Assembly (NCBI RefSeq): GCF_036507355.1
Contig: NZ_AP027877.1
Strand: one strand, 5' to 3'
Length of the DNA: 64,000 nt
Origin: Escherichia coli
GTDB lineage: Bacteria > Pseudomonadota > Gammaproteobacteria > Enterobacterales > Enterobacteriaceae
The translations under genes and the position numbers were made by a program. Shown in pieces: positions 1-37,336 of this stretch. Below the pieces are notes generated by a model. That model was not told where the DNA came from. It ran no database searches and was given only the letters and a program-made list of their open reading frames with translations. Position 1 is the first letter of the stretch. The number at the start of each line of letters is the position of its first letter.

Positions 1-252
1 AAAAGGCGCTCGGCATCGAATTCAGTCGCGTCGCATGTTTTTTGACAAATTCCTGGAACGCAGAGTGGTAGTGACCATAGCGAATAGAAGCACCAATGAC
101 CACACGGTCATAATTTTCCCATTGTGGTTCTTCAATGCGGTGCACATTGGCGACATCCGTCTGGATCCCCAGTTCTTTCAGTTCCGAAGCCAGGTAGGAG
201 GCAATCTCGCGCGTTTGTCCGTCCCTTGTTGAGAAAAGAATTAATGTTTTCA
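1..252 (-). CDS. hemG: Protoporphyrinogen oxidase HemG, N-terminal part only (gene runs off the window start); GTG start
   Basis: Minus-strand translation reads [31 protein letters not shown]..., matching the flavodoxin-like HemG N-terminus; GGAG RBS upstream of the GTG at 250-252. Confidence 0.85.
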
Positions 253-264
253 CGTATTACTCCA

Positions 265-1716
265 TCATTCACGCCAGAAAGTCGGGGTAAAGAGCACCAG
301 CAATGTAAAGACCTCGAGACGACCAAACAGCATGTTGGCAATCAGGATCCATTTAGCCACCGGGTTCATACTGGTAAAGTTATCAGCAACCACGCCAAGC
401 CCTGGCCCCAGGTTATTCAATGTCGCAACAACTGAGGCAAAGGCAGAAAAGTCATCCACGCCCGTGGCGATAATCGCCAGCATACTGACAATAAACACCA
501 ATGCATAGGCGGAGAAAAATCCCCAAACGGCTTCGAGGATACGTTCCGGCAGTGCGCGATTCCCCAGCTTAATGCTATAGACGGCGTTCGGATGCACCAG
601 TCGTTTCAGCTCACGGTTCCCCTGCTTAAACAGCAGCAGGATGCGGATCACTTTCAGGCCACCGCCCGTTGACCCGGCACAACCGCCGATAAAAGCCGAA
701 CATAAAAGCAGTACCGGCAAAAAGAGCGGCCAGCGGGCAATGCTGTCAGTCGTAAACCCGGCGGTTGTCGCCATCGACACCACCTGGAAAAACGCCTGGT
801 TAATTGTCATCAGCGCCGAACTGTAGACATTATGAAACCACAGTACGAGGGTACAAATAACCACCAGCGTAAACTGTACGCCGATAAACATGCGAAATTC
901 CGGATCGCGCCAATAAACCTTCAGACTACGCCCACTTAACAGTGAAAAGTGCAGACCGTAGTTACAGCCGGAGATCAGCAGGAAGATAGCAATGATAGTG
1001 TTAATAGTCGGGCTATCGAAATAACCGATACTGGCATCATGTGTCGAGAAGCCGCCAATAGCGATAGTCGCAAAGCTATGGCCGATGGCATCAAAGGCAT
1101 CCATTCCGGCAAACCACAACGCCAGCGCACAGGCGACGGTCAGCAAGACATAAATCAACCACAGGGTTTTCGCCGTTTCCGCAATTCGCGGGCGCATTTT
1201 GTTATCTTTCAGCGGGCCGGGCATTTCTGCGCGATAGAGCTGCATCCCACCCACGCCGAGGATAGGCAGTATCGCAACCGCTAACACGATGATCCCCATC
1301 CCGCCAAACCATTGCAGCATCTGGCGATAAAAGAGGATGGCGTGAGGGAGCGAATCCAGCCCCACCAGCGTAGTGGCCCCGGTGGTGGTCAGGCCAGAGA
1401 AAGATTCAAAAAACGCATCGGTAATCGTGAGGTTCGGGCTTTCCGAGAAGATAAAAGGGAGCGCACCGACACTACCCAGCACGGTCCAGAACAGCACCAC
1501 TATCAGAAACCCCTCACGGGATTTCAGTTCGCCCTTCTCTTTGCGGTTCGGCCACCACAGCATAGAGCCAATGGCGAGGGCGACAAAAAAGGTCTGGGTA
1601 AAAGCGCGGCCCGCTCCATCCCGGTAGATGAGTGCTACCAGCCCAGGGATAATCATGGTCCCTGAAAATAAGATGACCAGTAGTCCAACGATTCGGGTAA
1701 TGGCGCGAAAATGCAT
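265..1716 (-). CDS. trkH: Trk potassium uptake protein TrkH
   Basis: 483-aa polytopic membrane ORF starting MHFRAITRIVGLLVILFSG; conserved position next to hemG. Confidence 0.93.
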   Translation of the reverse strand: MHFRAITRIVGLLVILFSGTMIIPGLVALIYRDGAGRAFTQTFFVALAIGSMLWWPNRKEKGELKSREGFLIVVLFWTVLGSVGALPFIFSESPNLTITDAFFESFSGLTTTGATTLVGLDSLPHAILFYRQMLQWFGGMGIIVLAVAILPILGVGGMQLYRAEMPGPLKDNKMRPRIAETAKTLWLIYVLLTVACALALWFAGMDAFDAIGHSFATIAIGGFSTHDASIGYFDSPTINTIIAIFLLISGCNYGLHFSLLSGRSLKVYWRDPEFRMFIGVQFTLVVICTLVLWFHNVYSSALMTINQAFFQVVSMATTAGFTTDSIARWPLFLPVLLLCSAFIGGCAGSTGGGLKVIRILLLFKQGNRELKRLVHPNAVYSIKLGNRALPERILEAVWGFFSAYALVFIVSMLAIIATGVDDFSAFASVVATLNNLGPGLGVVADNFTSMNPVAKWILIANMLFGRLEVFTLLVLFTPTFWRE

Positions 1717-1754
1717 CTCTGCCGCTTCCTTAGTTCTGCAAAACGAAGTGGGGA

Positions 1755-2372
1755 TTATTCTTCAATCGCTAACAATTGCAATGAACCACGGCTAAAATCC
1801 GCCAGCTTTGCGGAAAATTCAGCCACTTTCGCCGCCGGAAGCGCCACCCGCAGCAGAACGAATGCCTGATAATCACTGTTGATAATTTTGCCGTCACACT
1901 GCCCCAGCAACGCTTCAATGCCGGTTAACTGACTATATTCACATTGCAAAGTATATTCGGTTAATGGCGTCTTGCGTTGGGTCGTTAGCTGGCGCAGCGC
2001 CTGATTCACGCCGCCGCCATACGCTTTCACTAACCCACCGGTGCCAAGCAATATGCCGCCGTAGTAGCGCACCACCACAGCGGTAATTTCCCCAACGCCG
2101 CTGCCCATTAGCTGGGCGAGCATCGGTTTACCTGCCGTTCCCGCCGGCTCCCCATCGTCAGAGAACCCCAGCTGTTGTGAATCATCCGGCGCACCCGCCA
2201 CCCACGCCACGCAATGGTGGCGGGCATCGGGGTGTTCTGCCCGCACCGATTCAACAAACGCTTTCGCCGCCTCAACGCCATCGGTATGCGCCAACATCGT
2301 TATGAAGCGGCTTTTTTTGATCTCTTCAACGACCGTGACCGGTGCCGCAGGAATTAACCAGCTTTCCATCAC
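1755..2372 (-). CDS. yigZ: IMPACT-family protein YigZ
   Basis: 205-aa ORF; position between trkH and pepQ; 4-bp overlap with the pepQ stop. Confidence 0.85.
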
Positions 2373-3700
2373 GCCAGTTTCAGATCCCGGGTCATGTTTT
2401 CCACGTTGTTTTCGTGGATCACCACGTTGTCTTCGATACGAATGCCGCCGAACGGTTTCAGTGCTTCAATTTTCTGCCAGTTGAAGTGCTTGCTGAACTG
2501 CCCTTCACGCCACGGTGCCAGTAGCGATTCAATGAAGTAGATACCCGGTTCGATGGTTAACACCATGCCCGGCTGGAGAATACGGGTGCAGCGCAGGTAC
2601 GGATATTTTGCCGGTGCCGCGAGGTGCGTACCGCTATCATCCTGCATAAAACCGGCGACGTCATGCACCTGCAGGCCCAGCGGATGGCCGATACCGTGCG
2701 GCATAAACGGTCCGGTGAGATCGTTTTCGACCATCGCTTCTTCACTCATATCGGTGATGATTTGATGTTTACGCAGCAGTTTGGCGATGCGCTGATGGAA
2801 CTGGATGTGGTAATCCACATAGCTAACGCCAGCTTTCATGGTCGCGATCAGCGCCAGTTGTTCATCATTTACGTCTTTCACCAGCTGTGCGTAGTCGTTG
2901 TCGCTTTTTGCCGACCAGGTACGGGTCAGGTCAGCGGCATAGCCGTTATATTCGGCCCCGGCATCCAGCAGGAAGCTGCGCATCTCTTCCGGCGCCTGAT
3001 GATCCAGTTTGGTATAATGCAGCACCGCAGCGTGTTCGTTGAGCGCCACAATGTTGCTGTAAGGTACGTCGGTATCACGATGACCGGTCGCAGTCAGATA
3101 GGCAATATTGATATCGAACTCGCTCATGCCAGAACGGAACGCTTCTTCTGCCGCGCGATGACCGTTGACCGCCATTTTCTGCGCTTCACGCATACAAGCC
3201 AGCTCGTACTCGGTTTTGAAGGAGCGGTAGTAATGCAGGTAGTCGATAACCCCTTTCGGGTTGATATTGCTGGCCTCAATACCCAGTTGCAGCGCACGTT
3301 CCGGCACCGGACCGATATAACCGATATTGCCGCGCGCAGCAGGCAACAGACTACCAATTCCATCGGCTTTCGGCAGCGCGATCACTTCTACATCTTCAGT
3401 CCAGAAGGAGGTCGGCAGCGGTTCGACGTTGTGCCAGTAATCAACCGGCAGATAAAACCACAGTTTCGGCTTGTTCACGCCATCCACCAACAACCAGCAG
3501 TTTGGCACCTGAGTTACCGGCACCCACGCTTTGAATTGCGGGTTCACTTTAAACGGATAGGGATGATCGTCGAGAAAAACATTGAACAGCTCGCCGGAGT
3601 GAATAAGTAACGCATCCAGCTTGAAGCGCGCCAGCGCATCGCGAGTCCGTTCTTGTAAGGTAGCTATATGATTTTTATAGAGCGAGGCCAGTGATTCCAT
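2369..3700 (-). CDS. pepQ: Xaa-Pro dipeptidase PepQ
   Basis: 443-aa ORF with metallopeptidase M24 character ([13 protein letters not shown]); divergent from fadB. Confidence 0.92.
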
Positions 3701-3847
3701 TTTTTACCCTTCTGTTTTTTTGACCTTAAGTCTCCGCATCTTAGCACATCGTTCATCCAGAGCGTGATTTCTGCCGAGCGTGATCAGATCGGCATTTCTT
3801 TAATCTTTTGTTTGCATATTTTTAACACAAAATACACACTTCGACTC

Positions 3848-3864
3848 ATCTGGTACGACCAGAT
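3848..3864. promoter_or_regulatory. FadR operator palindrome in the fadBA promoter
   Basis: ATCTGGTACGACCAGAT perfect palindrome about 25 bp upstream of the fadB ATG. Confidence 0.75.
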
Positions 3865-3889
3865 CACCTTGCGGATTCAGGAGACTGAC

Positions 3890-6079
3890 ATGCTTTACAA
3901 AGGCGACACCCTGTACCTTGACTGGCTGGAAGATGGCATTGCCGAACTGGTATTTGATGCCCCAGGTTCAGTTAATAAACTCGACACTGCGACCGTCGCC
4001 AGCCTCGGCGAGGCCATCGGCGTGCTGGAACAGCAATCAGATCTAAAAGGGCTGCTGCTGCGTTCGAACAAAGCAGCCTTTATCGTCGGTGCTGATATCA
4101 CCGAATTTTTGTCCCTGTTCCTCGTTCCTGAAGAACAGTTAAGTCAGTGGCTGCACTTTGCCAATAGCGTGTTTAATCGCCTGGAAGATCTGCCGGTGCC
4201 GACCATTGCTGCCGTCAATGGCTATGCGCTGGGCGGTGGCTGCGAATGCGTGCTGGCGACCGATTATCGTCTGGCGACGCCGGATCTGCGCATCGGTCTG
4301 CCGGAAACCAAACTGGGCATCATGCCGGGCTTTGGCGGTTCTGTACGTATGCCACGTATGCTGGGCGCTGACAGTGCGCTGGAAATCATTGCCGCCGGTA
4401 AAGATGTCGGCGCGGATCAGGCGCTGAAAATCGGTCTGGTGGATGGCGTAGTCAAAGCAGAAAAACTGATTGAAGGGGCGATGGCGATTTTACGCCAGGC
4501 CATTAACGGCGACCTCGACTGGAAAGCGAAACGTCAGCCGAAGCTGGAACCGCTAAAACTGAGCAAGATTGAAGCCACCATGAGCTTCACCATCGCTAAA
4601 GGGATGGTCGCACAAACGGCGGGGAAACATTATCCGGCCCCCATCACCGCAGTAAAAACCATTGAAGCTGCGGCCCGTTTTGGTCGTGAAGAAGCCCTAA
4701 ACCTGGAAAACAAAAGTTTTGTCCCGCTGGCGCATACCAACGAAGCTCGCGCACTGGTCGGCATATTCCTTAACGATCAATATGTAAAAGGCAAAGCGAA
4801 GAAACTCACCAAAGACGTTGAAACCCCGAAACAGGCCGCTGTGCTGGGCGCAGGCATTATGGGCGGCGGCATCGCTTACCAGTCTGCGTGGAAAGGCGTG
4901 CCGGTTGTCATGAAAGATATCAACGACAAGTCGTTAACCCTCGGCATGACCGAAGCCGCGAAACTGCTGAACAAGCAGCTTGAGCGCGGCAAGATCGATG
5001 GTCTGAAACTGGCTGGCGTGATCTCTACAATCCACCCAACGCTCGACTACGCCGGGTTTGACCGCGTGGATATTGTGGTAGAAGCTGTTGTCGAAAACCC
5101 AAAAGTGAAAAAAGCCGTACTGGCAGAAACCGAGCAGAAAGTACGCCCGGATACCGTGCTGGCGTCTAACACTTCAACCATTCCTATCAGCGAACTGGCC
5201 AACGCGCTGGAACGTCCGGAAAACTTCTGCGGGATGCACTTCTTTAACCCGGTACATCGGATGCCGTTGGTGGAAATTATTCGCGGCGAGAAAAGCTCCG
5301 ACGAAACCATCGCGAAAGTCGTCGCCTGGGCAAGCAAGATGGGCAAAACGCCAATTGTGGTTAACGACTGCCCCGGCTTCTTCGTCAACCGTGTGCTGTT
5401 CCCCTATTTCGCCGGTTTCAGCCAGCTGCTGCGCGACGGCGCGGATTTTCGCAAGATCGACAAAGTGATGGAAAAACAGTTTGGCTGGCCGATGGGTCCG
5501 GCATATCTGCTGGATGTCGTGGGCATTGACACCGCGCATCACGCTCAGGCGGTGATGGCAGCAGGCTTCCCGCAGCGGATGCAGAAAGATTATCGCGATG
5601 CCATCGACGCGCTGTTTGATGCCAACCGCTTTGGTCAGAAGAACGGCCTCGGTTTCTGGCGTTATAAAGAAGACAGCAAAGGTAAGCCGAAGAAAGAAGA
5701 AGACGCCGCTGTTGACGACCTGCTGGCAGAAGTCAATCAGCCGAAGTGCGATTTCAGCGAGGAAGAGATTATCGCCCGCATGATGATCCCGATGGTCAAC
5801 GAAGTGGTGCGCTGTCTGGAAGAGGGCATTATCGCCACTCCGGCAGAAGCGGATATGGCGCTGGTCTACGGCCTGGGCTTCCCTCCGTTCCACGGCGGCG
5901 CGTTCCGCTGGCTGGACACCCTCGGCAGCGCGAAATACCTCGATATGGCACAGCAATATCAGCACCTCGGCCCGCTGTATGAAGTGCCGGAAGGTCTGCG
6001 TAATAAAGCGCGTCATAACGAACCGTACTATCCACCGGTTGAGCCAGCCCGTCCGGTTGGCGACCTGAAAACGGCTTAA
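3890..6079 (+). CDS. fadB: Fatty acid oxidation complex alpha subunit FadB
   Basis: Start [25 protein letters not shown] with GGAG RBS; the ORF-track start at 3764 is an upstream extension running through the FadR operator. Confidence 0.95.
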
Positions 6080-7252
<1,173 letters not shown>

Positions 7253-7257
7253 CCACT

Positions 7258-7372
7258 TGCCGGATGCGGCGTGAACGCCTTATCCGGTCTACCGATCCGG
7301 CACCAATGTAGGCCTGATAAGACGCGCCAGCGTCGCATCAGGCATCGTGTGCCGAATGCCGGATGCGACATA
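7258..7372. repeat. BIME: cluster of three REP palindromic units
   Basis: Repeated GCCGGATGCGGCGTGAACGCCTTATCCGG-type and GTAGGCCTGATAAGACGCG-type palindromes. Confidence 0.85.
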
Positions 7373-19315: not shown

Positions 19316-19707
19316 TTTCCTCTTAGTCTATATTTGAGATGGTGAGTGAACGAGTGCGTTTTGCTGCCATCTCTGTCCCCCAAAAAATAATCAGTATGAA
19401 TTGATTGGAGATTACGACTCCGCTATTTGACCTTAAGAAAGTCGGCAAGTCATAGTCATAAATGAGTCTCTTCAATGGAAGACACCTTAGAGATTTACCA
19501 TCCACTCCCATTCACAAACAAACATTAATTATTATCAACACATTCACATTAATTATAAATCATCTCAGACCTTCCTGATAAAAAGATATTAAAGTGAAAC
19601 ATTGTGTTTTTCACATTTTAGTTCATCACTTTTAGGCGTAAATAAAGGTAAAAAAACAACAATACTATTTCTCTTTCACAAAAGAATTAACAAAAGGTTT
19701 TTCAAGG

Positions 19708-20856
19708 ATGAGTGATATTATTTACTTGACCATAACCGGAGAACAACAAGGATGTATTTCCTCTCGTTGTGGAACGAGCGCATCAATAGGTAATCGCTGG
19801 CAGATTGGCCATGAAGATGAAATCTTCGCGTTCTCGCTCTCTAATAGTATTACGAATACAGGCAAAGGGTCACAATTGCATGGCCTTAGTTTCTGTAAAT
19901 TGATTGACAAAAGCTCCCCGTTACTTATTAACGCTATTAACAATAACGAGCAGTTGTTCATGGAGTTTGACTTCTATCGGATCAATAGATTTGGTCGATG
20001 GGAGAAATATTACAACATTCAACTCCGCGGCGCGCTCTTATCAGCAATCAATCACCTGTTTACTGAGAACAATCTGGATACAGAAGCCATCACTGTCAGT
20101 TATGAATATATACTCTCCAGGCATCTGATTGCTAATACTGAATTTAGTTATTTGGCATTTCCCGATAACTACAACCGTCTGTTTATACCACGGCCAAAAA
20201 CTAAAGCTGGTAATGGTTTCAAAACACTTAACAGTAAAGCGGTTGGCAGACTGCTTGCTGCTGGTGGCATATACAATGGGAATATCGAAGGATTCAGGGA
20301 AACAGCAGACAAGTTGGGGGGAGATGCACCTGCTGGTTACGATCAATTTATGGATAACAAAGGGTTACTCATCGCTGGTGCTTCAATAGTTGCTGGAGCA
20401 GTTCTGGGGAGAATGAGACTCCCTGATTTGGAATCACTTGAGCATTTCGGAGCCAGAGGAGCAGTATCAGGAAGACCATTTAATCCCGACCTTGCCGGTG
20501 GTCCAATAGAAAATCTGACGACAGATGGCATAACAATCAACAGGGAAGGTATCGCTATTGTTGAAAAACACATAGCCAGATTTGGTCATGACCCTGTAAA
20601 TGAAGTGATGATCAATAGACTGAAAGACATTGAGAAAGGAAAAATCCCCCCAGAACAAGTAGATCTTAACTTCTATACTCATGAGTGTCGGGAATATCAG
20701 CGTTACTGTAATCTTGGTTGGGAAACAGGACAACCTGATGGTGACGCAGGCTATGCACTCTGGAATCATACGCATACTGCTACTCTAGAAGATTATAAAC
20801 TTAAGGGAGAACTTAATGACTTATACCACCAGGATGCACTTGACTATGATAACTGA
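19708..20856 (+). CDS. Hcp-fold protein with ~210-aa C-terminal extension (candidate 'evolved Hcp' type VI secretion effector); C-terminal domain unassigned
   Basis: N-terminal ~165 aa carry Hcp signature blocks (KLIDKSSPLL; FDFYRINRFG) aligning to KEIDSSSPYL and FKWYRIN of canonical Hcp; AAGGA RBS; gene visibly AT-rich; not in the K-12 ysgA-metE interval. Confidence 0.72.
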   Translation: MSDIIYLTITGEQQGCISSRCGTSASIGNRWQIGHEDEIFAFSLSNSITNTGKGSQLHGLSFCKLIDKSSPLLINAINNNEQLFMEFDFYRINRFGRWEKYYNIQLRGALLSAINHLFTENNLDTEAITVSYEYILSRHLIANTEFSYLAFPDNYNRLFIPRPKTKAGNGFKTLNSKAVGRLLAAGGIYNGNIEGFRETADKLGGDAPAGYDQFMDNKGLLIAGASIVAGAVLGRMRLPDLESLEHFGARGAVSGRPFNPDLAGGPIENLTTDGITINREGIAIVEKHIARFGHDPVNEVMINRLKDIEKGKIPPEQVDLNFYTHECREYQRYCNLGWETGQPDGDAGYALWNHTHTATLEDYKLKGELNDLYHQDALDYDN

Positions 20857-21091
20857 AACTGAAATTATCGTACTGAAAGTTATGGCTGAGAAAGATATAA
20901 ACTGGAACTGGATGAATCTCGATCGCACACTATCCATAAGGCAAATTCCAGGATTCGGTAATGTTGTTAACATTGTTAACAAATTAGCTAACGAGGGTTT
21001 GGTTATTATTGAGGATAGCGGACATAAGTCTATGCCTCACTACCACGTTACTGAAAAGGGATACAATTTCGTGAAAAGTGAGAATAAATAA
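20816..21091 (+). CDS. Small protein immediately downstream of the Hcp-extension gene; candidate cognate immunity protein (possible internal start at 20846)
   Basis: The ATG at 20846 overlaps the upstream stop in an ATGA arrangement; 81-91 aa; same strand; AT-rich. Confidence 0.5.
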   Translation: MTYTTRMHLTMITETEIIVLKVMAEKDINWNWMNLDRTLSIRQIPGFGNVVNIVNKLANEGLVIIEDSGHKSMPHYHVTEKGYNFVKSENK

Positions 21092-21237
21092 CGTAGCGTT
21101 GATTACTGAACAAATCGCTCAGGATTATATTTTGCGTAAAAATGATTCGGTTATTTCTGTATCTGAACGGGCGCAGATAGCAAAATGGCTTCCGGTGATG
21201 GAAGCCATCAGATTATTGGCAAAGTGCGCGTTGTTCA

Positions 21238-21325
21238 TGCCGGATGCGGCGTGAACGCCTTGTCCAGCCAACAAAACCCAAAAATTCAATAAATTGCATA
21301 AATTATGTAGGCCTGGTATCAGGCA
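21238..21325. repeat. REP unit plus IHF-site-like spacer plus partial REP (RIP-type BIME)
   Basis: TGCCGGATGCGGCGTGAACGCCTTGTCC, then AAAAATTCAATAAATTG, then GTAGGCCTGGTATCAGGC. Confidence 0.75.
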
Positions 21326-21375
21326 GTTTTGCCTCTTTCATCGTACTGCAATTTACAGTGACTCGTTAATATTCA

Positions 21376-32510: not shown

Positions 32511-33401
32511 ATGGATGCAAAACAAACGCGGCAGGGCGTATTACTCGCTCTTGCCGCTTATTTTATTTGGGGTATAGCCCCAGCGTACTTCAAGTTGATT
32601 TACTACGTGCCCGCCGATGAAATCCTGACGCATCGCGTGATCTGGTCGTTTTTCTTTATGGTGGTGCTGATGAGCATTTGCCGCCAGTGGTCCTATTTAA
32701 AAACGCTGATTCAGACGCCACAGAAAATTTTTATGCTTGCAGTCTCTGCCGTGCTGATTGGTGGCAACTGGCTACTGTTTATCTGGGCGGTGAACAATCA
32801 CCATATGCTGGAAGCGAGCCTTGGTTACTTTATTAACCCGCTGGTGAACATTGTGCTGGGGATGATTTTCCTCGGCGAGCGATTCCGCCGGATGCAATGG
32901 CTGGCGGTGATTCTGGCGATATGTGGCGTGTTGGTTCAGCTGTGGACTTTTGGTTCACTGCCGATCATCGCGCTGGGACTGGCATTTAGTTTTGCCTTCT
33001 ACGGTCTGGTACGCAAGAAGATTGCCGTTGAAGCGCAAACCGGCATGTTAATCGAAACTATGTGGCTGCTGCCCGTGGCGGCAATTTACCTGTTTGCTAT
33101 TGCCGATAGCTCAACCAGCCATATGGGGCAAAACCCGATATCGCTGAATTTACTGCTGATCGCTGCCGGTATTGTCACTACCGTACCGCTGTTGTGTTTT
33201 ACTGCAGCTGCGACACGCCTGCGTCTCTCAACGTTAGGCTTTTTCCAGTACATTGGCCCGACGCTGATGTTCCTGCTGGCTGTGACGTTTTATGGTGAAA
33301 AACCGGGTGCCGATAAAATGGTGACTTTCGCCTTTATTTGGGTGGCGCTGGCAATTTTTGTGATGGATGCAATTTATACTCAACGTAGAACGTCCAAATA
33401 A
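32511..33401 (+). CDS. rarD: EamA/DMT-family transporter RarD
   Basis: 296-aa polytopic ORF MDAKQTRQGVLLALAAYFIWGIAPAYFKL. Confidence 0.92.
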   Translation: MDAKQTRQGVLLALAAYFIWGIAPAYFKLIYYVPADEILTHRVIWSFFFMVVLMSICRQWSYLKTLIQTPQKIFMLAVSAVLIGGNWLLFIWAVNNHHMLEASLGYFINPLVNIVLGMIFLGERFRRMQWLAVILAICGVLVQLWTFGSLPIIALGLAFSFAFYGLVRKKIAVEAQTGMLIETMWLLPVAAIYLFAIADSSTSHMGQNPISLNLLLIAAGIVTTVPLLCFTAAATRLRLSTLGFFQYIGPTLMFLLAVTFYGEKPGADKMVTFAFIWVALAIFVMDAIYTQRRTSK

Positions 33402-33435
33402 AAAATAAATATATTCTGAAAAAATATGCCGACTC

Positions 33436-33813
33436 TTGCATGAGAGTGGGCATATTGCCATGCTGACAGGAGACTCACACAAGGATGTAAAATTTATGTT
33501 ACGTATGTTTATCCCAACATCTAACGGTAAGATTTCCAGACGCCGTTATATATTTTCATTTATTTTAATAAACTTCATTTTTGCCTTTCTTATTATCTTT
33601 TTTAACGATGGAGAAGCAGGTTTTCTTGTTATAGTCTCTACCATCTTACTCCATTATCTCGTCATCAATCTGAATTGCCAACGACTCCGTGATAGTGGTT
33701 TCGTCTATATAAAAACTTATGTTTTTGGTACATTAGCAGTATATATCATCTCTATCATCACAATGATAGCCGAAGATTTTGCCTGTTCAGGCAATGGTTC
33801 GATGATTTTTTAA
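33436..33813 (+). CDS. yigG: Small inner membrane protein YigG
   Basis: 125-aa ORF with two hydrophobic helices; position after rarD; AT-rich. Confidence 0.6.
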
Positions 33814-33888
33814 TTTGTTATTTTTCCACTTTCAGTATGCTAATGCTTGCACCTACTGATTCATCAAAACAATAGTTATGGAGTATTT

Positions 33889-34269
33889 ATGAGTAAGGAA
33901 TATATGAACGATGGTTCATTAAGTGAAAAATGGAAATACCGATTTAATTTTTATGATCAACATGGTTTTCCTGGATTCTGGGGGGCAACACCAGAATATA
34001 AAGCAGCATTTAAAGCATTAAAAGTAAGACAACGCTTAACTATTCAAATGAATTTCATTGCTTTCTTCTGTTCCTAGATATATTTATTTGTCCTGGGGTT
34101 ATGGAAAAAAGCAATTATAGTTCTATTACTTGGTATTCTATCTCTATTTGTTGGTGCACTAATTGGCGTTAACATTCTGGGTATTGCCGTAGCAGCCTAT
34201 GTTGCTGTTAACACGAACAAATGGTTCTATGAGAAAGAAGTAAAAGGGTTAAATACCTGGAGCCTTTGA
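33889..34269 (+). pseudogene. yigF: yigF (DUF2628-type small membrane protein) interrupted by an in-frame amber codon at 34075-34077
   Basis: MSKEYMNDGSLSEKWKYRFNFYDQHGFPGFWG... stops at TAG after 62 codons, then the same frame stays open for 63 more protein-like hydrophobic codons to TGA at 34267-34269. Confidence 0.6.
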
Positions 34270-34309
34270 ATAAGAGGTGGCTTAGCCAGGCTAAGCCACC
34301 GCCTTCTTT

Positions 34310-34445
34310 TTACAACCAGTTCTTGCGCTTAAAGTACAGATACGGTGCCAGGCCCGCGAGGATCATAAAGATAATCGCGCCTGGGTAGCCGAAACTCCAC
34401 TTCAGTTCTGGCATAAACTCAAAGTTCATGCCATAGCTGGAGGCA
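34310..34445 (-). repeat. Orphan near-identical copy of the corA 3' end (direct repeat of 36017-36150)
   Basis: Encodes ...[43 protein letters not shown], the CorA C-terminus including the GMN motif; only a few mismatches to the intact corA 3' end. Confidence 0.85.
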
Positions 34446-34637
34446 ATCCGCGTAGGAAAAAGTTTCCTAATCGGTAAATTCAACATATTGTTATTAACAA
34501 TGGGCAAAACCAATCAATAACGAGATTCCCTTCGGAATGTAATAAAAATGTGAAGTGTACTTCTTTTTTAAAATTTTTTATCCTAGCATTTGTTCTCAAA
34601 TTGATATTGAGCTTAAATATAACCAAGGAAAATGTAA

Positions 34638-35345
34638 ATGAATAACACATTACTTCCATCAATTAATATTCCCTGTACACTTTTCGAAACTATTAGTTTA
34701 TTTGATGATTATTCTGCTGATGATATGCAATATGGTGATATGGTAGAACAAGATTTTCTCTCACTCGGCCTAAGCGATATCTCAGCAAAAGTTGATCCTT
34801 ACAGACTTATTAAATACCATTTCCCTGGCCCAGGTTCTGTTAATGTTGTTTTTAGTGCCTCAAGTTCCGGAACAAAAATATCACAACGTGAATGCACTGA
34901 TATTTTATTTGCAGAAATGAAAGAACTAGCAAAAAATTTTTCCTTTTTTGGACAATATAAAACACTTATCGAAGATCTGATTGAACATTTTAGATATGGA
35001 AATGGCAGCAATTTTCATAGCCAACAATTAAATTTATCTTTTCATGAAAAGATAAATAAATATGGTTATAATAGTCCAATACGAATAATCAAAGAATGTA
35101 TCGAAAATGGCATTAATTCAACTCCCTCGACAGGATACCAACCTCTTATCCTGCAAAGCATTAAAACCAAATTACTTTCATCAAGACTAAATAAATTTAA
35201 TGACTTCGAGGACAGTTTTAATGGCTTAGGAATCAGTATTCATGATATTTCAGCTCAAAAAAATATCTCTTTTAAGCTTTCAAAAATACGCTATAGGGTG
35301 GAGTGCGACAATTCATTTTGTAGCACAGGACCACTTCGGTCTTGA
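34638..35345 (+). CDS. Hypothetical protein in the AT-rich corA-adjacent insert; probably frameshifted (alternative frame continues to 35487)
   Basis: 235-aa ORF with no match recalled; AT-rich; an A7 tract at 35260-35266 lies where a second frame opens and runs to a TGA overlapping the next gene start. Confidence 0.45.
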   Translation: MNNTLLPSINIPCTLFETISLFDDYSADDMQYGDMVEQDFLSLGLSDISAKVDPYRLIKYHFPGPGSVNVVFSASSSGTKISQRECTDILFAEMKELAKNFSFFGQYKTLIEDLIEHFRYGNGSNFHSQQLNLSFHEKINKYGYNSPIRIIKECIENGINSTPSTGYQPLILQSIKTKLLSSRLNKFNDFEDSFNGLGISIHDISAQKNISFKLSKIRYRVECDNSFCSTGPLRS

Positions 35346-35483
35346 TGTAACTGATATCAAAAACAAGACTTACAGCAAATATAGATTTTTTCGCATATGG
35401 TTCTTTTTACAACGGCATAAAGGCTTTGCTTTCAAACCTTTTTTCACCAATTTTAACACTATCGAAAGAATCGAAAATTATCT

Positions 35484-35975
35484 ATGAAAAGCAAACGCCA
35501 GAAAATTATATTATGTTTATTTCTTCTATGCTGTATCTATAATTTATGGACATTGCGTCCTGTACAGATTTTGTATACATACTCTGATGCTGGCAATTCA
35601 GTCTTTCTGGTCGTTGATCATCTGCCATGGACTGACAGCGATAAAATAAATTGGTATCTGAAGCATCAGAATGAAATTAAAAATCAACATCCCCTACCAG
35701 AAGGTAGTTGGCATACCTGGTATGTCATTGATATCGGTAATGGCTTCACTGACTATAAAAAATATATCGAAGGGCCGTATGAAGATCTCTACTGTTTCCC
35801 GACAATTAAGAGCAATGATAATTGCATCGTGAAAAATTACTTAATGGTTATTAATGAATACCCTTATCGTAACACTCATATTGGTATTAACGATTTTACT
35901 GAGTATCAATTAACACAAGAAAATAAAATAGAGCGAGTTTTCAATCCGCATGACTTTAAAAAAGACAATTTTTAG
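35484..35975 (+). CDS. Hypothetical small membrane-anchored protein (N-terminal signal/TM segment), second gene of the insert
   Basis: 163-aa ORF MKSKRQKIILCLFLLCCIYNLW...; Trp/Tyr-rich; AT-rich; followed by a GCCGGATAAA...TTTATCCGGC hairpin. Confidence 0.5.
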   Translation: MKSKRQKIILCLFLLCCIYNLWTLRPVQILYTYSDAGNSVFLVVDHLPWTDSDKINWYLKHQNEIKNQHPLPEGSWHTWYVIDIGNGFTDYKKYIEGPYEDLYCFPTIKSNDNCIVKNYLMVINEYPYRNTHIGINDFTEYQLTQENKIERVFNPHDFKKDNF

Positions 35976-36016
35976 AAATAAGCCGGATAAAAAAATAGCT
36001 TTATCCGGCACTCATA

Positions 36017-36967
36017 TTACAACCAGTTCTTCCGCTTAAAGTACAGATACGGTGCCAGGCCCGCGAGGATCATAAAGATAATCGCGCCTGGGTAGCCGAA
36101 ACTCCACTTCAGTTCTGGCATAAACTCAAAGTTCATCCCGTAGCTGGAAGCAACCAGCGTTGGCGGCAGGAACACGACGGATACCACCGAGAAAATTTTG
36201 ATGATGCGGTTCTGCTCGATGTTGATAAAACCCATTGCCGCCTGCATCAGGAAGTTCACCTTCTGGAACAGGGATTCGTTATGCGGCAGCAGGGATTCGA
36301 TATCTCGCAGGATTTCACGCGCCTGCTCCAGTTGCCCACCCGGTAAGCGTGCTTTACGTACCAGGAAGTTGAGAGCGCGCTGGGTATCCATCAGACACAG
36401 GCGAACTTTCCAGCCGATATCTTCCAGTTCCGCCAGAGTGGAGAGCGCCTCGTCGTACTCATCGCCCTGATGCCCTTCCATAATCACCCGGCTCAATTGC
36501 TCCAGGTCGCTATAGATATTTTCAATTTCATCTGCCAACTGTTCGATTTTGGTTTCGAACAAATCCAGCAGCAACTCGTAGGCGTTACCGTCTACCATCG
36601 ACTGGCTACGGGCACGCATACGATATAGACGAAAAGCGGGCAGTTCACGCTCACGCAGAGTAAACAGACGACCATCACGGATGGTAAATGCCACAGTGGA
36701 GTTACCGGCGTGATCTTCCGCATCTTCAAAGAAGAAGAAGGAGTGAATATGCAGGCCGTCATCGTCTTCAAAGAAACGTGCCGATGCTTCGATGTCTTCC
36801 AGTTCCGGGCGGGTTGCCAGGCTCTGGCCAAGTTCAGATTGTACGCGCAGTCGCTCGTCGTCGTCCGGTTCGACAAGATCAATCCATACTGCATTTACAA
36901 GGGGTTGTGACTCTTCGACTTCCAGCCGGGTCAGTCGGTTATTTTCCAGTTGAAATGCGCTCAGCAT
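36017..36967 (-). CDS. corA: Magnesium/cobalt transport protein CorA
   Basis: Start placed at [31 protein letters not shown] (316 aa); GMN motif and C-terminal TM helices. Confidence 0.95.
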
Positions 36968-37336
36968 GACCGGGACTCCCAATGCTTAAAATATCGGACA
37001 GTTCGGTGGGCACACAGAAACAAATTGGGTTTCAGACCATTAAACAGCCTGACTCAGCGCGACGGGAAAAATTGAGGTCGCTGACAACCGCTAAGGCTAT
37101 CAGCAAAAAGGGATAGCCTTAGGAGTTGATCCTGGATGACAGGATAGTGAGCCAGTATCTACTGGGTGTGTCCAAGGCGAATGTCCTCTTAGAGTGATCG
37201 TGCGCGCATGTTACGCCAGCAAAATTTTGCCGTCAACACGCAACAGAACACCACAGAACAATAGTTGAACTTCGCGCTTTTTGGTACTCGTCAAGGTCGC
37301 TAACAGGATAAAAAAATCCCACATCCAGGACCTATA

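Follow-up and report, generated by a model that had tools for sequence, protein, structure and literature searches.

Three kinds of described systems stand close to the locus reported here. The Hcp-ET1 to Hcp-ET5 effectors of Enterobacteriaceae combine, like the protein analyzed in this work, an N-terminal Hcp with a C-terminal toxin, and are encoded together with an adjacent immunity gene at an orphan chromosomal site. They fall into five clans: HNH, DUF2235, Pyocin_S, Colicin-DNase and papain-like (PMC6099711). Short C-terminal toxins that lack a Pfam assignment and are accompanied by immunity genes, again as in our case, are represented by PT1 and PT7, shown to be DNases (Nachmias et al.), and by the Hcp-fused T6EC4, a proposed DNase (Geller et al.). 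The third kind comprises the S-type pyocins and nuclease colicins, which carry the same C-terminal killing domain as our protein, followed by an immunity gene of ~85–96 codons. In these bacteriocins the toxin directly follows the Pyocin_S domain, an inner-membrane-translocation (IMT) module that occurs with cytoplasm-acting nucleases and is absent from periplasm-acting bacteriocins (PMC9040868).

The closest relatives, along with many unnamed pyocins and colicins, are carocin D (CaroDK/CaroDI) and carocin S3 (CaroS3K/CaroS3I) of Pectobacterium carotovorum, which resemble the locus described below both in the killing domain and in the immunity gene overlapping the toxin gene by ATGA. [quoted passage not shown] Purified carocin S3K was found to degrade genomic DNA in Mg2+ buffer and to be inhibited by CaroS3I, a 90-aa protein whose gene overlaps caroS3K by ATGA (PMC7461348). 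Carocin D is cited as a DNase in a review listing and in the carocin S3 paper (PMC7461348). The evidence for carocin DNase activity is modest: carocin S3 was assayed on simple gels, and DNA digestion was reported for the immunity protein by itself, too (PMC7461348). One review counts carocin S1, carocin S3, pyocin S3 and Hcp-ET3 among the nucleases “with undetectable domains.”

The locus is located in a 64,000-nucleotide stretch of Escherichia coli DNA (contig NZ_AP027877.1), hereafter the window. It occupies a place on the E. coli chromosome between rmuC, udp and ysgA on one side and metE and metR on the other. A low-GC islet of ~2 kb between ysgA and metE (19316–21375, strand not applicable) contains the whole module; its GC content is 0.42, as compared to ~0.50–0.55 in the flanks. 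The main gene of the islet (19708–20856, plus strand) codes for a 382-aa protein and is intact in the window; strain 88-3493 and other strains represented in RefSeq likewise have an intact copy. RefSeq genomes with the same insert are annotated in the order ysgA, tssD, two hypothetical genes, metE. No T6SS cluster is present within the 64-kb window. The region between the immunity gene and metE also contains a 40-aa ORF (~21132–21254), hypothetical in RefSeq, and a REP-like GC-rich palindrome (~21228–21262). When the 2.1-kb module was used as a query, it matched 2–19 places per genome (median 9), probably because of the REP copies.

A second low-GC islet (33400–36000, GC content 0.32–0.40) was observed in the window between rarD (32511–33401) and corA (36017–36982, minus strand). 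It encodes a protein of the “YPO3983 family” (TIGR03034; 34638–35345) and several small ORFs with no assigned function.

The N-terminal part of the 382-aa protein (aa 1–160; 19708–20187, plus strand) is an Hcp/TssD tube-protein domain, as established by three sequence comparisons. TIGR03344 matched aa 1–147 with 125.8 bits (cut-off 58.9), Pfam T6SS_HCP matched aa 6–135 with an E-value of 1.3e-13, and the PDB Hcp chains 6a2v and 3he1 were found by sequence search with E-values of 1e-14 and 1e-12, respectively. The Hcp fold proposed for this part in the initial annotation of the stretch is thus real, and all peptides quoted there are present in the translation of the ORF.

The C-terminal extension starts near aa 161 (nt 20188), slightly upstream of the position 20200 (aa 165) previously assigned to it. 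Having been treated as a single domain of ~210 aa, it actually consists of two units, a linker of ~80 aa (aa 161–240; 20188–20427, plus strand) and a 142-aa toxin domain (aa 241–382; 20428–20853, or 20428–20856 with the stop codon, plus strand). The linker, or pre-toxin region, has no Pfam match and contains a Gly/Ala-rich hydrophobic segment, GLLIAGASIVAGAVLG (aa 219–234; 20362–20409), which is the sole strongly hydrophobic stretch of the protein, with a Kyte-Doolittle maximum of 2.27 over 15 aa. In an AlphaFold (AF2) run on linker plus toxin the linker obtained pLDDT values of 26–57 and no confident structure, so that no stable fold is predicted for it. It accompanies the toxin domain also where the N-terminal carrier is DUF8093 rather than Hcp. 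The toxin domain, assigned to the carocin D/S3 type by homology, by its AF2 model and by the invariant residues that it keeps, contains the peptide LEHFGARG..., starting at aa 244 and followed in the translation by FYTHECREYQRY and WNHTHTATLEDY. Its AF2 model (aa 241–382), built from a nine-sequence alignment, has a mean pLDDT of 89 and a pTM of 0.85, and comprises four main helices, preceded by a long N-terminal loop that includes a small hairpin.

Searches of Pfam, NCBIfam and PADLOC with the full protein, the isolated domain, the nine-member alignment and the immunity protein returned the Hcp domain as the only match. The extension and the isolated domain remained without a Pfam match even at E<=10, and the extension had no match in NCBIfam or PADLOC. 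The PDB sequence search, in which the single protein as well as a profile served as query, found only Hcp chains and nothing for the extension, and the PDB fold search with the toxin-domain model, a check suggested together with the initial annotation, gave no match. The absence of Pfam, NCBIfam, PADLOC and PDB matches to the extension therefore confirms the earlier observation that it is not recognizable from sequence as any known toxin family. In the literature search, the peptide motifs of the domain were not found in the main text of any paper.

By Pfam, the toxin domain belongs to none of the five Hcp-ET clans, although it may figure as unclassified in the original Hcp-ET description. The architecture is that of an Hcp-ET protein in other respects, with an N-terminal Hcp/TssD, a C-terminal toxin domain, recognized by homology only, and a predicted immunity ORF downstream. 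Identity with PT1 or PT7 was rejected: crystal structures of these proteins exist, yet the PDB sequence and fold searches with our domain missed both. Identity with T6EC4 or the Tox-REase-5 toxin TseT was likewise rejected, T6EC4 being Tox-REase-5-like while our domain is modeled as all-helical and has no Pfam Tox-REase-5 match.

The sequence of the toxin domain shows homology to the carocin D and S3 killing domains from Pectobacterium: in BLASTP it aligned over 131 aa with the C terminus of CaroDK (45% identity, E-value 1e-33) and over 131 aa with that of CaroS3K (44% identity, E-value 1e-35), the carocin sequences having been taken from the supplementary alignment of PMC7461348. The motifs KGxYSGR, AGGP, HxxRF, FYTHExRE and WNxTHTATLEDY are common to our domain and to carocins S3K and DK; at greater length, the shared motifs read KGKYSGR, DKAGGP, KLHTGRF, NKVMIxRL, DKRFYTHEIRELxRYRNLG and WNxTHTATLEDYKI. 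The extension had been suggested to be an uncharacterized effector domain, which holds insofar as it has no curated family or solved structure, but not for its function, since the homologous killing domains of carocins D and S3 are reported DNases. A match to a characterized domain, named at the outset as what would speak against novelty, was obtained in none of Pfam, NCBIfam and PDB, but the carocin D and S3 domains do match, at 44–45% identity.

Two irregularities were noticed in the supplement of PMC7461348. One row bears the label “Pyocin S3K” but follows the carocin DK row with hardly a difference until it stops short; its probable source is a mislabeled Pectobacterium sequence and not pyocin S3 of P. 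aeruginosa. A carocin S3K motif printed there as WNNHTTATLEDY is likely a transposition of WNNTHTATLEDY.

Membership in the His-Me finger (HNH) superfamily is implied by the names “HNH endonuclease” and “colicin” that some homologues have in databases, and by a review table in which carocin D is listed under the His-Me finger clan with no Pfam family. However, neither an HNH nor a Colicin-DNase profile matched in Pfam at E<=10, the AF2 model is all-helical, and no His-Me finger structure occurred among the PDB fold matches, which makes such membership very improbable.

A profile search of 1.84 billion cluster representatives assigned 781 clusters to the toxin family at E<=1e-3 and 258 at E<=1e-30, numbers that lie far outside what chance would give. 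Among the best 150 of the 781 representatives, the domain is located at the extreme C terminus in all but four, with a median of four residues after it, in proteins ranging from 138 to 5157 aa; in 54 of these 150 a Pyocin_S domain ends 1–4 residues before the toxin. S-type pyocin and colicin architectures are the commonest kind of carrier, and the others include YD/Rhs and PAAR proteins, a ferredoxin-domain (pectocin-like) bacteriocin, Hcp and, in Pantoea, Cronobacter and Citrobacter, proteins with an N-terminal DUF8093 (PF26362) domain. The proposal that the extension is an effector (toxin) domain is borne out by this C-terminal carriage on pyocin, Rhs and PAAR proteins and by the carocin homology. 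Examples of the S-type pyocin and colicin architecture are a 694-aa “pyocin killing protein” of P. aeruginosa, with Pyocin_S at residues 403–546 and the toxin from residue 547, and a Salmonella protein in which a Cloacin domain and two Pyocin_S domains precede the toxin. The 640-aa pyocin G of P. aeruginosa was looked for among the clusters of the toxin family and was not found. The 7-kb mobilizable ColE1-type E. coli plasmid pS19_141-d (NZ_CP075644.1, locus coordinates 2637–5385) carries a classic colicin operon, in which a gene for a 747-aa Pyocin_S activity protein ending in the toxin domain is accompanied by a 90-aa immunity gene, with a 4-nt overlap, and by a lysis gene. Klebsiella has plasmids of this kind of 3.8–5.8 kb.

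A scan of one genome per species yielded 150 relatives, distributed among Enterobacterales, Pseudomonas, Burkholderiales, Xanthomonadales, Rhodobacterales, many Cyanobacteria, Planctomycetes, Bacteroidota and Acidobacteriota; the family spans at least seven phyla. In Pantoea agglomerans (locus coordinates 6001–7316) the linker, the toxin and an immunity gene of the same family as in the window (family A, see below) follow an N-terminal DUF8093/PF26362 domain and not Hcp. The neighbors of this locus are a type I restriction-modification system and reverse-transcriptase/AAA genes, with no T6SS genes adjoining. Microcoleus, Tychonema and related cyanobacteria encode the toxin domain on its own, as an ORF of ~136 aa; the protein that follows it (~160 aa) belongs to immunity family A in its N-terminal part and has an additional C-terminal part.

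The protein encoded in the window does not have a Pyocin_S (PF06958) domain directly N-terminal to the toxin, according to Pfam, and in this it differs from the S-type pyocins and colicins, where the toxin directly follows the IMT domain and the immunity protein is of family B. The carriage of the same toxin on Hcp via a hydrophobic linker instead of an IMT domain is new relative to carocins, pyocins and colicins. The position of Pyocin_S/IMT directly before the toxin in the homologues provides independent support for a cytoplasmic nucleic-acid target (PMC9040868).

The likely chemistry was approached through residue conservation in 240 distinct domain sequences. Positions conserved in at least 95% of them (numbered as in the ORF) are G251, R256, G264, G265, H288, R291, F292, N298, R304, D319, Y323, H325, E326, R328, E329, R332, Y333, W352, N353, H356, L360 and E361, with S254 (92%) and D362 (94%) just below the threshold. 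Relative to these 240 sequences, the copy in the window keeps all positions conserved at 80% or more, except for one Pro-to-Gln replacement near the C terminus. The roughly 30 residues conserved across the family are all intact in it. Neighboring helices carry three invariant His, five Arg and two or three acidic residues, next to two Gly-rich loops. This set suggests a metal site with phosphate binding, consistent with the reports of Mg2+-dependent DNase activity. Conserved His, Glu and Cys residues had initially been taken to fit a nuclease or other hydrolase. The His and Glu are indeed near-invariant, but the Cys part of the suggestion was not sustained: C327 and C334 are conserved only in the Hcp/DUF8093 clade, the pyocin clade having Ile/Val/Leu and Arg/Ser at these positions, and are therefore not catalytic.

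With the same effector/immunity architecture, the toxin could be an RNase acting on tRNA or rRNA: the invariant His/Glu/Arg/Thr/Tyr set would fit metal-independent RNA cleavage as well, the IMT/Pyocin_S module serves as carrier for the rRNase and tRNase domains of colicins E3, D and E5, too, and the authors of the carocin S3 study in one passage name the C terminus “the catalysis centre of ribonuclease” (PMC7461348). We consider this unlikely, given that DNase activity is the only one reported among family members (carocin S3 with Mg2+, and carocin D) and that no RNase toxin family or fold was matched in the Pfam and PDB fold searches. Less probable still is a cytoplasmic enzyme other than a nuclease, which would modify a protein target or else use ATP, NAD or a similar nucleotide, by consumption or transfer, the GxxSGR and AGGP loops binding cofactor phosphates. 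The two invariant Gly-rich loops and five invariant Arg do resemble nucleotide-binding features, the fold is without a nuclease neighbor in PDB, and the published DNase assays are of low stringency. Against such an enzyme, DNase activity of homologues is described in two reports, all characterized toxins found after an IMT domain are nucleases, and the PDB searches indicated no similarity to Fic/Doc, ART, NADase or (p)ppApp synthetase folds. A nuclease, as already guessed in the initial annotation, is still the best reading, the carocin homologues being reported DNases. Overall, this is a real, intact toxin domain of a family that is uncurated and structurally unsolved but has been touched by experiment, and it is most likely a metal-dependent DNase.

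The gene directly downstream of the toxin (20846–21091, plus strand) codes for an 81-aa product, hypothetical in RefSeq (WP_000627421.1), and starts within the stop-codon region of the toxin gene (ATGATAA). Its position and family relationships make it a candidate immunity gene. Homologues located directly downstream of the toxin are 52% identical in Pantoea and 59% identical in CFT073 and LF82. More generally, 78 of 79 related loci have a small ORF downstream of the toxin, mostly ~30 nt or less from its stop codon and up to 140 nt away in a few cyanobacterial loci. Family A, to which the product from the window belongs, accounts for 45 of the 78 downstream ORFs. About 30 others constitute family B, ending in ...KGPNWKEPKFVTEKKYGIE, and all of these stand beside pyocin-type toxins. 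Alignment between the two families is marginal (hhalign probability 46%, E-value 2e-4). Family A itself produced only weak winged-helix-like matches, namely to PadR/HxlR-type structures (E-value ~1) and to Pfam HTH_45 (E-value 0.12). Among the loci compared, the immunity protein in the window thus differs in family from those of the pyocin- and colicin-type toxins.

The Hcp part was found in 846 (~16%) of the 5426 complete E. coli genomes, 833 of which have it at 95% identity or more. The toxin and immunity part is much more variable, being at least 95% identical in 118 genomes, 80–90% identical in 292 and 60–80% identical in 436. Comparison of the proteins from the window with the CFT073 allele revealed identities of 97.5% for Hcp, 90% for the linker, 73% for the toxin and 59% for the immunity protein. 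Such a fall in identity from Hcp to the immunity protein is the pattern expected of a polymorphic toxin–immunity pair. Independent events inactivated the Hcp-ET gene in several E. coli lineages, all of which retain an intact immunity gene: a stop codon at W98 in the B2 strains CFT073 (locus coordinates 1079–2786) and LF82, an IS3 insertion in O145, and a frameshift in strain 2013C-3264, where the toxin half is annotated as “colicin.” The B2 strains possess two immunity genes, the cognate one with 59% identity to that of the window and an orphan with 88% identity.

Given the observed domain architecture, carocin homology, immunity synteny, modular carriage and lack of a known fold, the locus probably encodes an orphan Hcp-ET effector with a carocin-type, cytoplasm-acting and probably metal-dependent DNase, together with its immunity protein. 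The Hcp domain would load the protein into the T6SS tube. The hydrophobic Gly/Ala-rich linker may then carry the toxin across the inner membrane of the target cell, in place of a Pyocin_S/IMT domain, and the killing domain would perform divalent-metal-dependent degradation of DNA in the target cytoplasm. Its putative site would comprise H288, H325, E326, E329, H356 and E361, and phosphate would be bound by several invariant Arg. The 81-aa downstream product would act in the producer and in related cells by binding and blocking the toxin. More tentatively, and with rather more doubt than confidence, the family may be regarded as a structurally new nuclease superfamily. It would be defined by a four-helix domain of ~140 aa that has no neighbor among solved structures, whose metal site is of the three-His/Glu type and whose Gly-rich loops bind phosphate. 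This domain is carried as a toxin by pyocins, colicins, Rhs, PAAR and Hcp proteins in bacteria from Proteobacteria to Cyanobacteria, Planctomycetes and Bacteroidota; in its Hcp/DUF8093 clade it would cross the inner membrane by means of a short, hydrophobic, glycine-zipper-like linker instead of an IMT domain.

This analysis connects a bacteriocin killing domain that has been studied by experiment with an unannotated “tssD” gene found in ~16% of complete E. coli genomes, and reveals a large cross-phylum toxin family that has no entry in Pfam, NCBIfam or PDB. Current pipelines label its members “TssD,” “colicin,” “HNH endonuclease” or “hypothetical,” and surveys of nuclease bacteriocins that use the five known cytotoxic-domain profiles would miss the family. 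The structure of a toxin–immunity complex could define a new nuclease fold. Passage of T6SS and bacteriocin nucleases through the inner membrane could be studied as a natural experiment, by comparing the IMT-linked carriers with those that have a hydrophobic linker.
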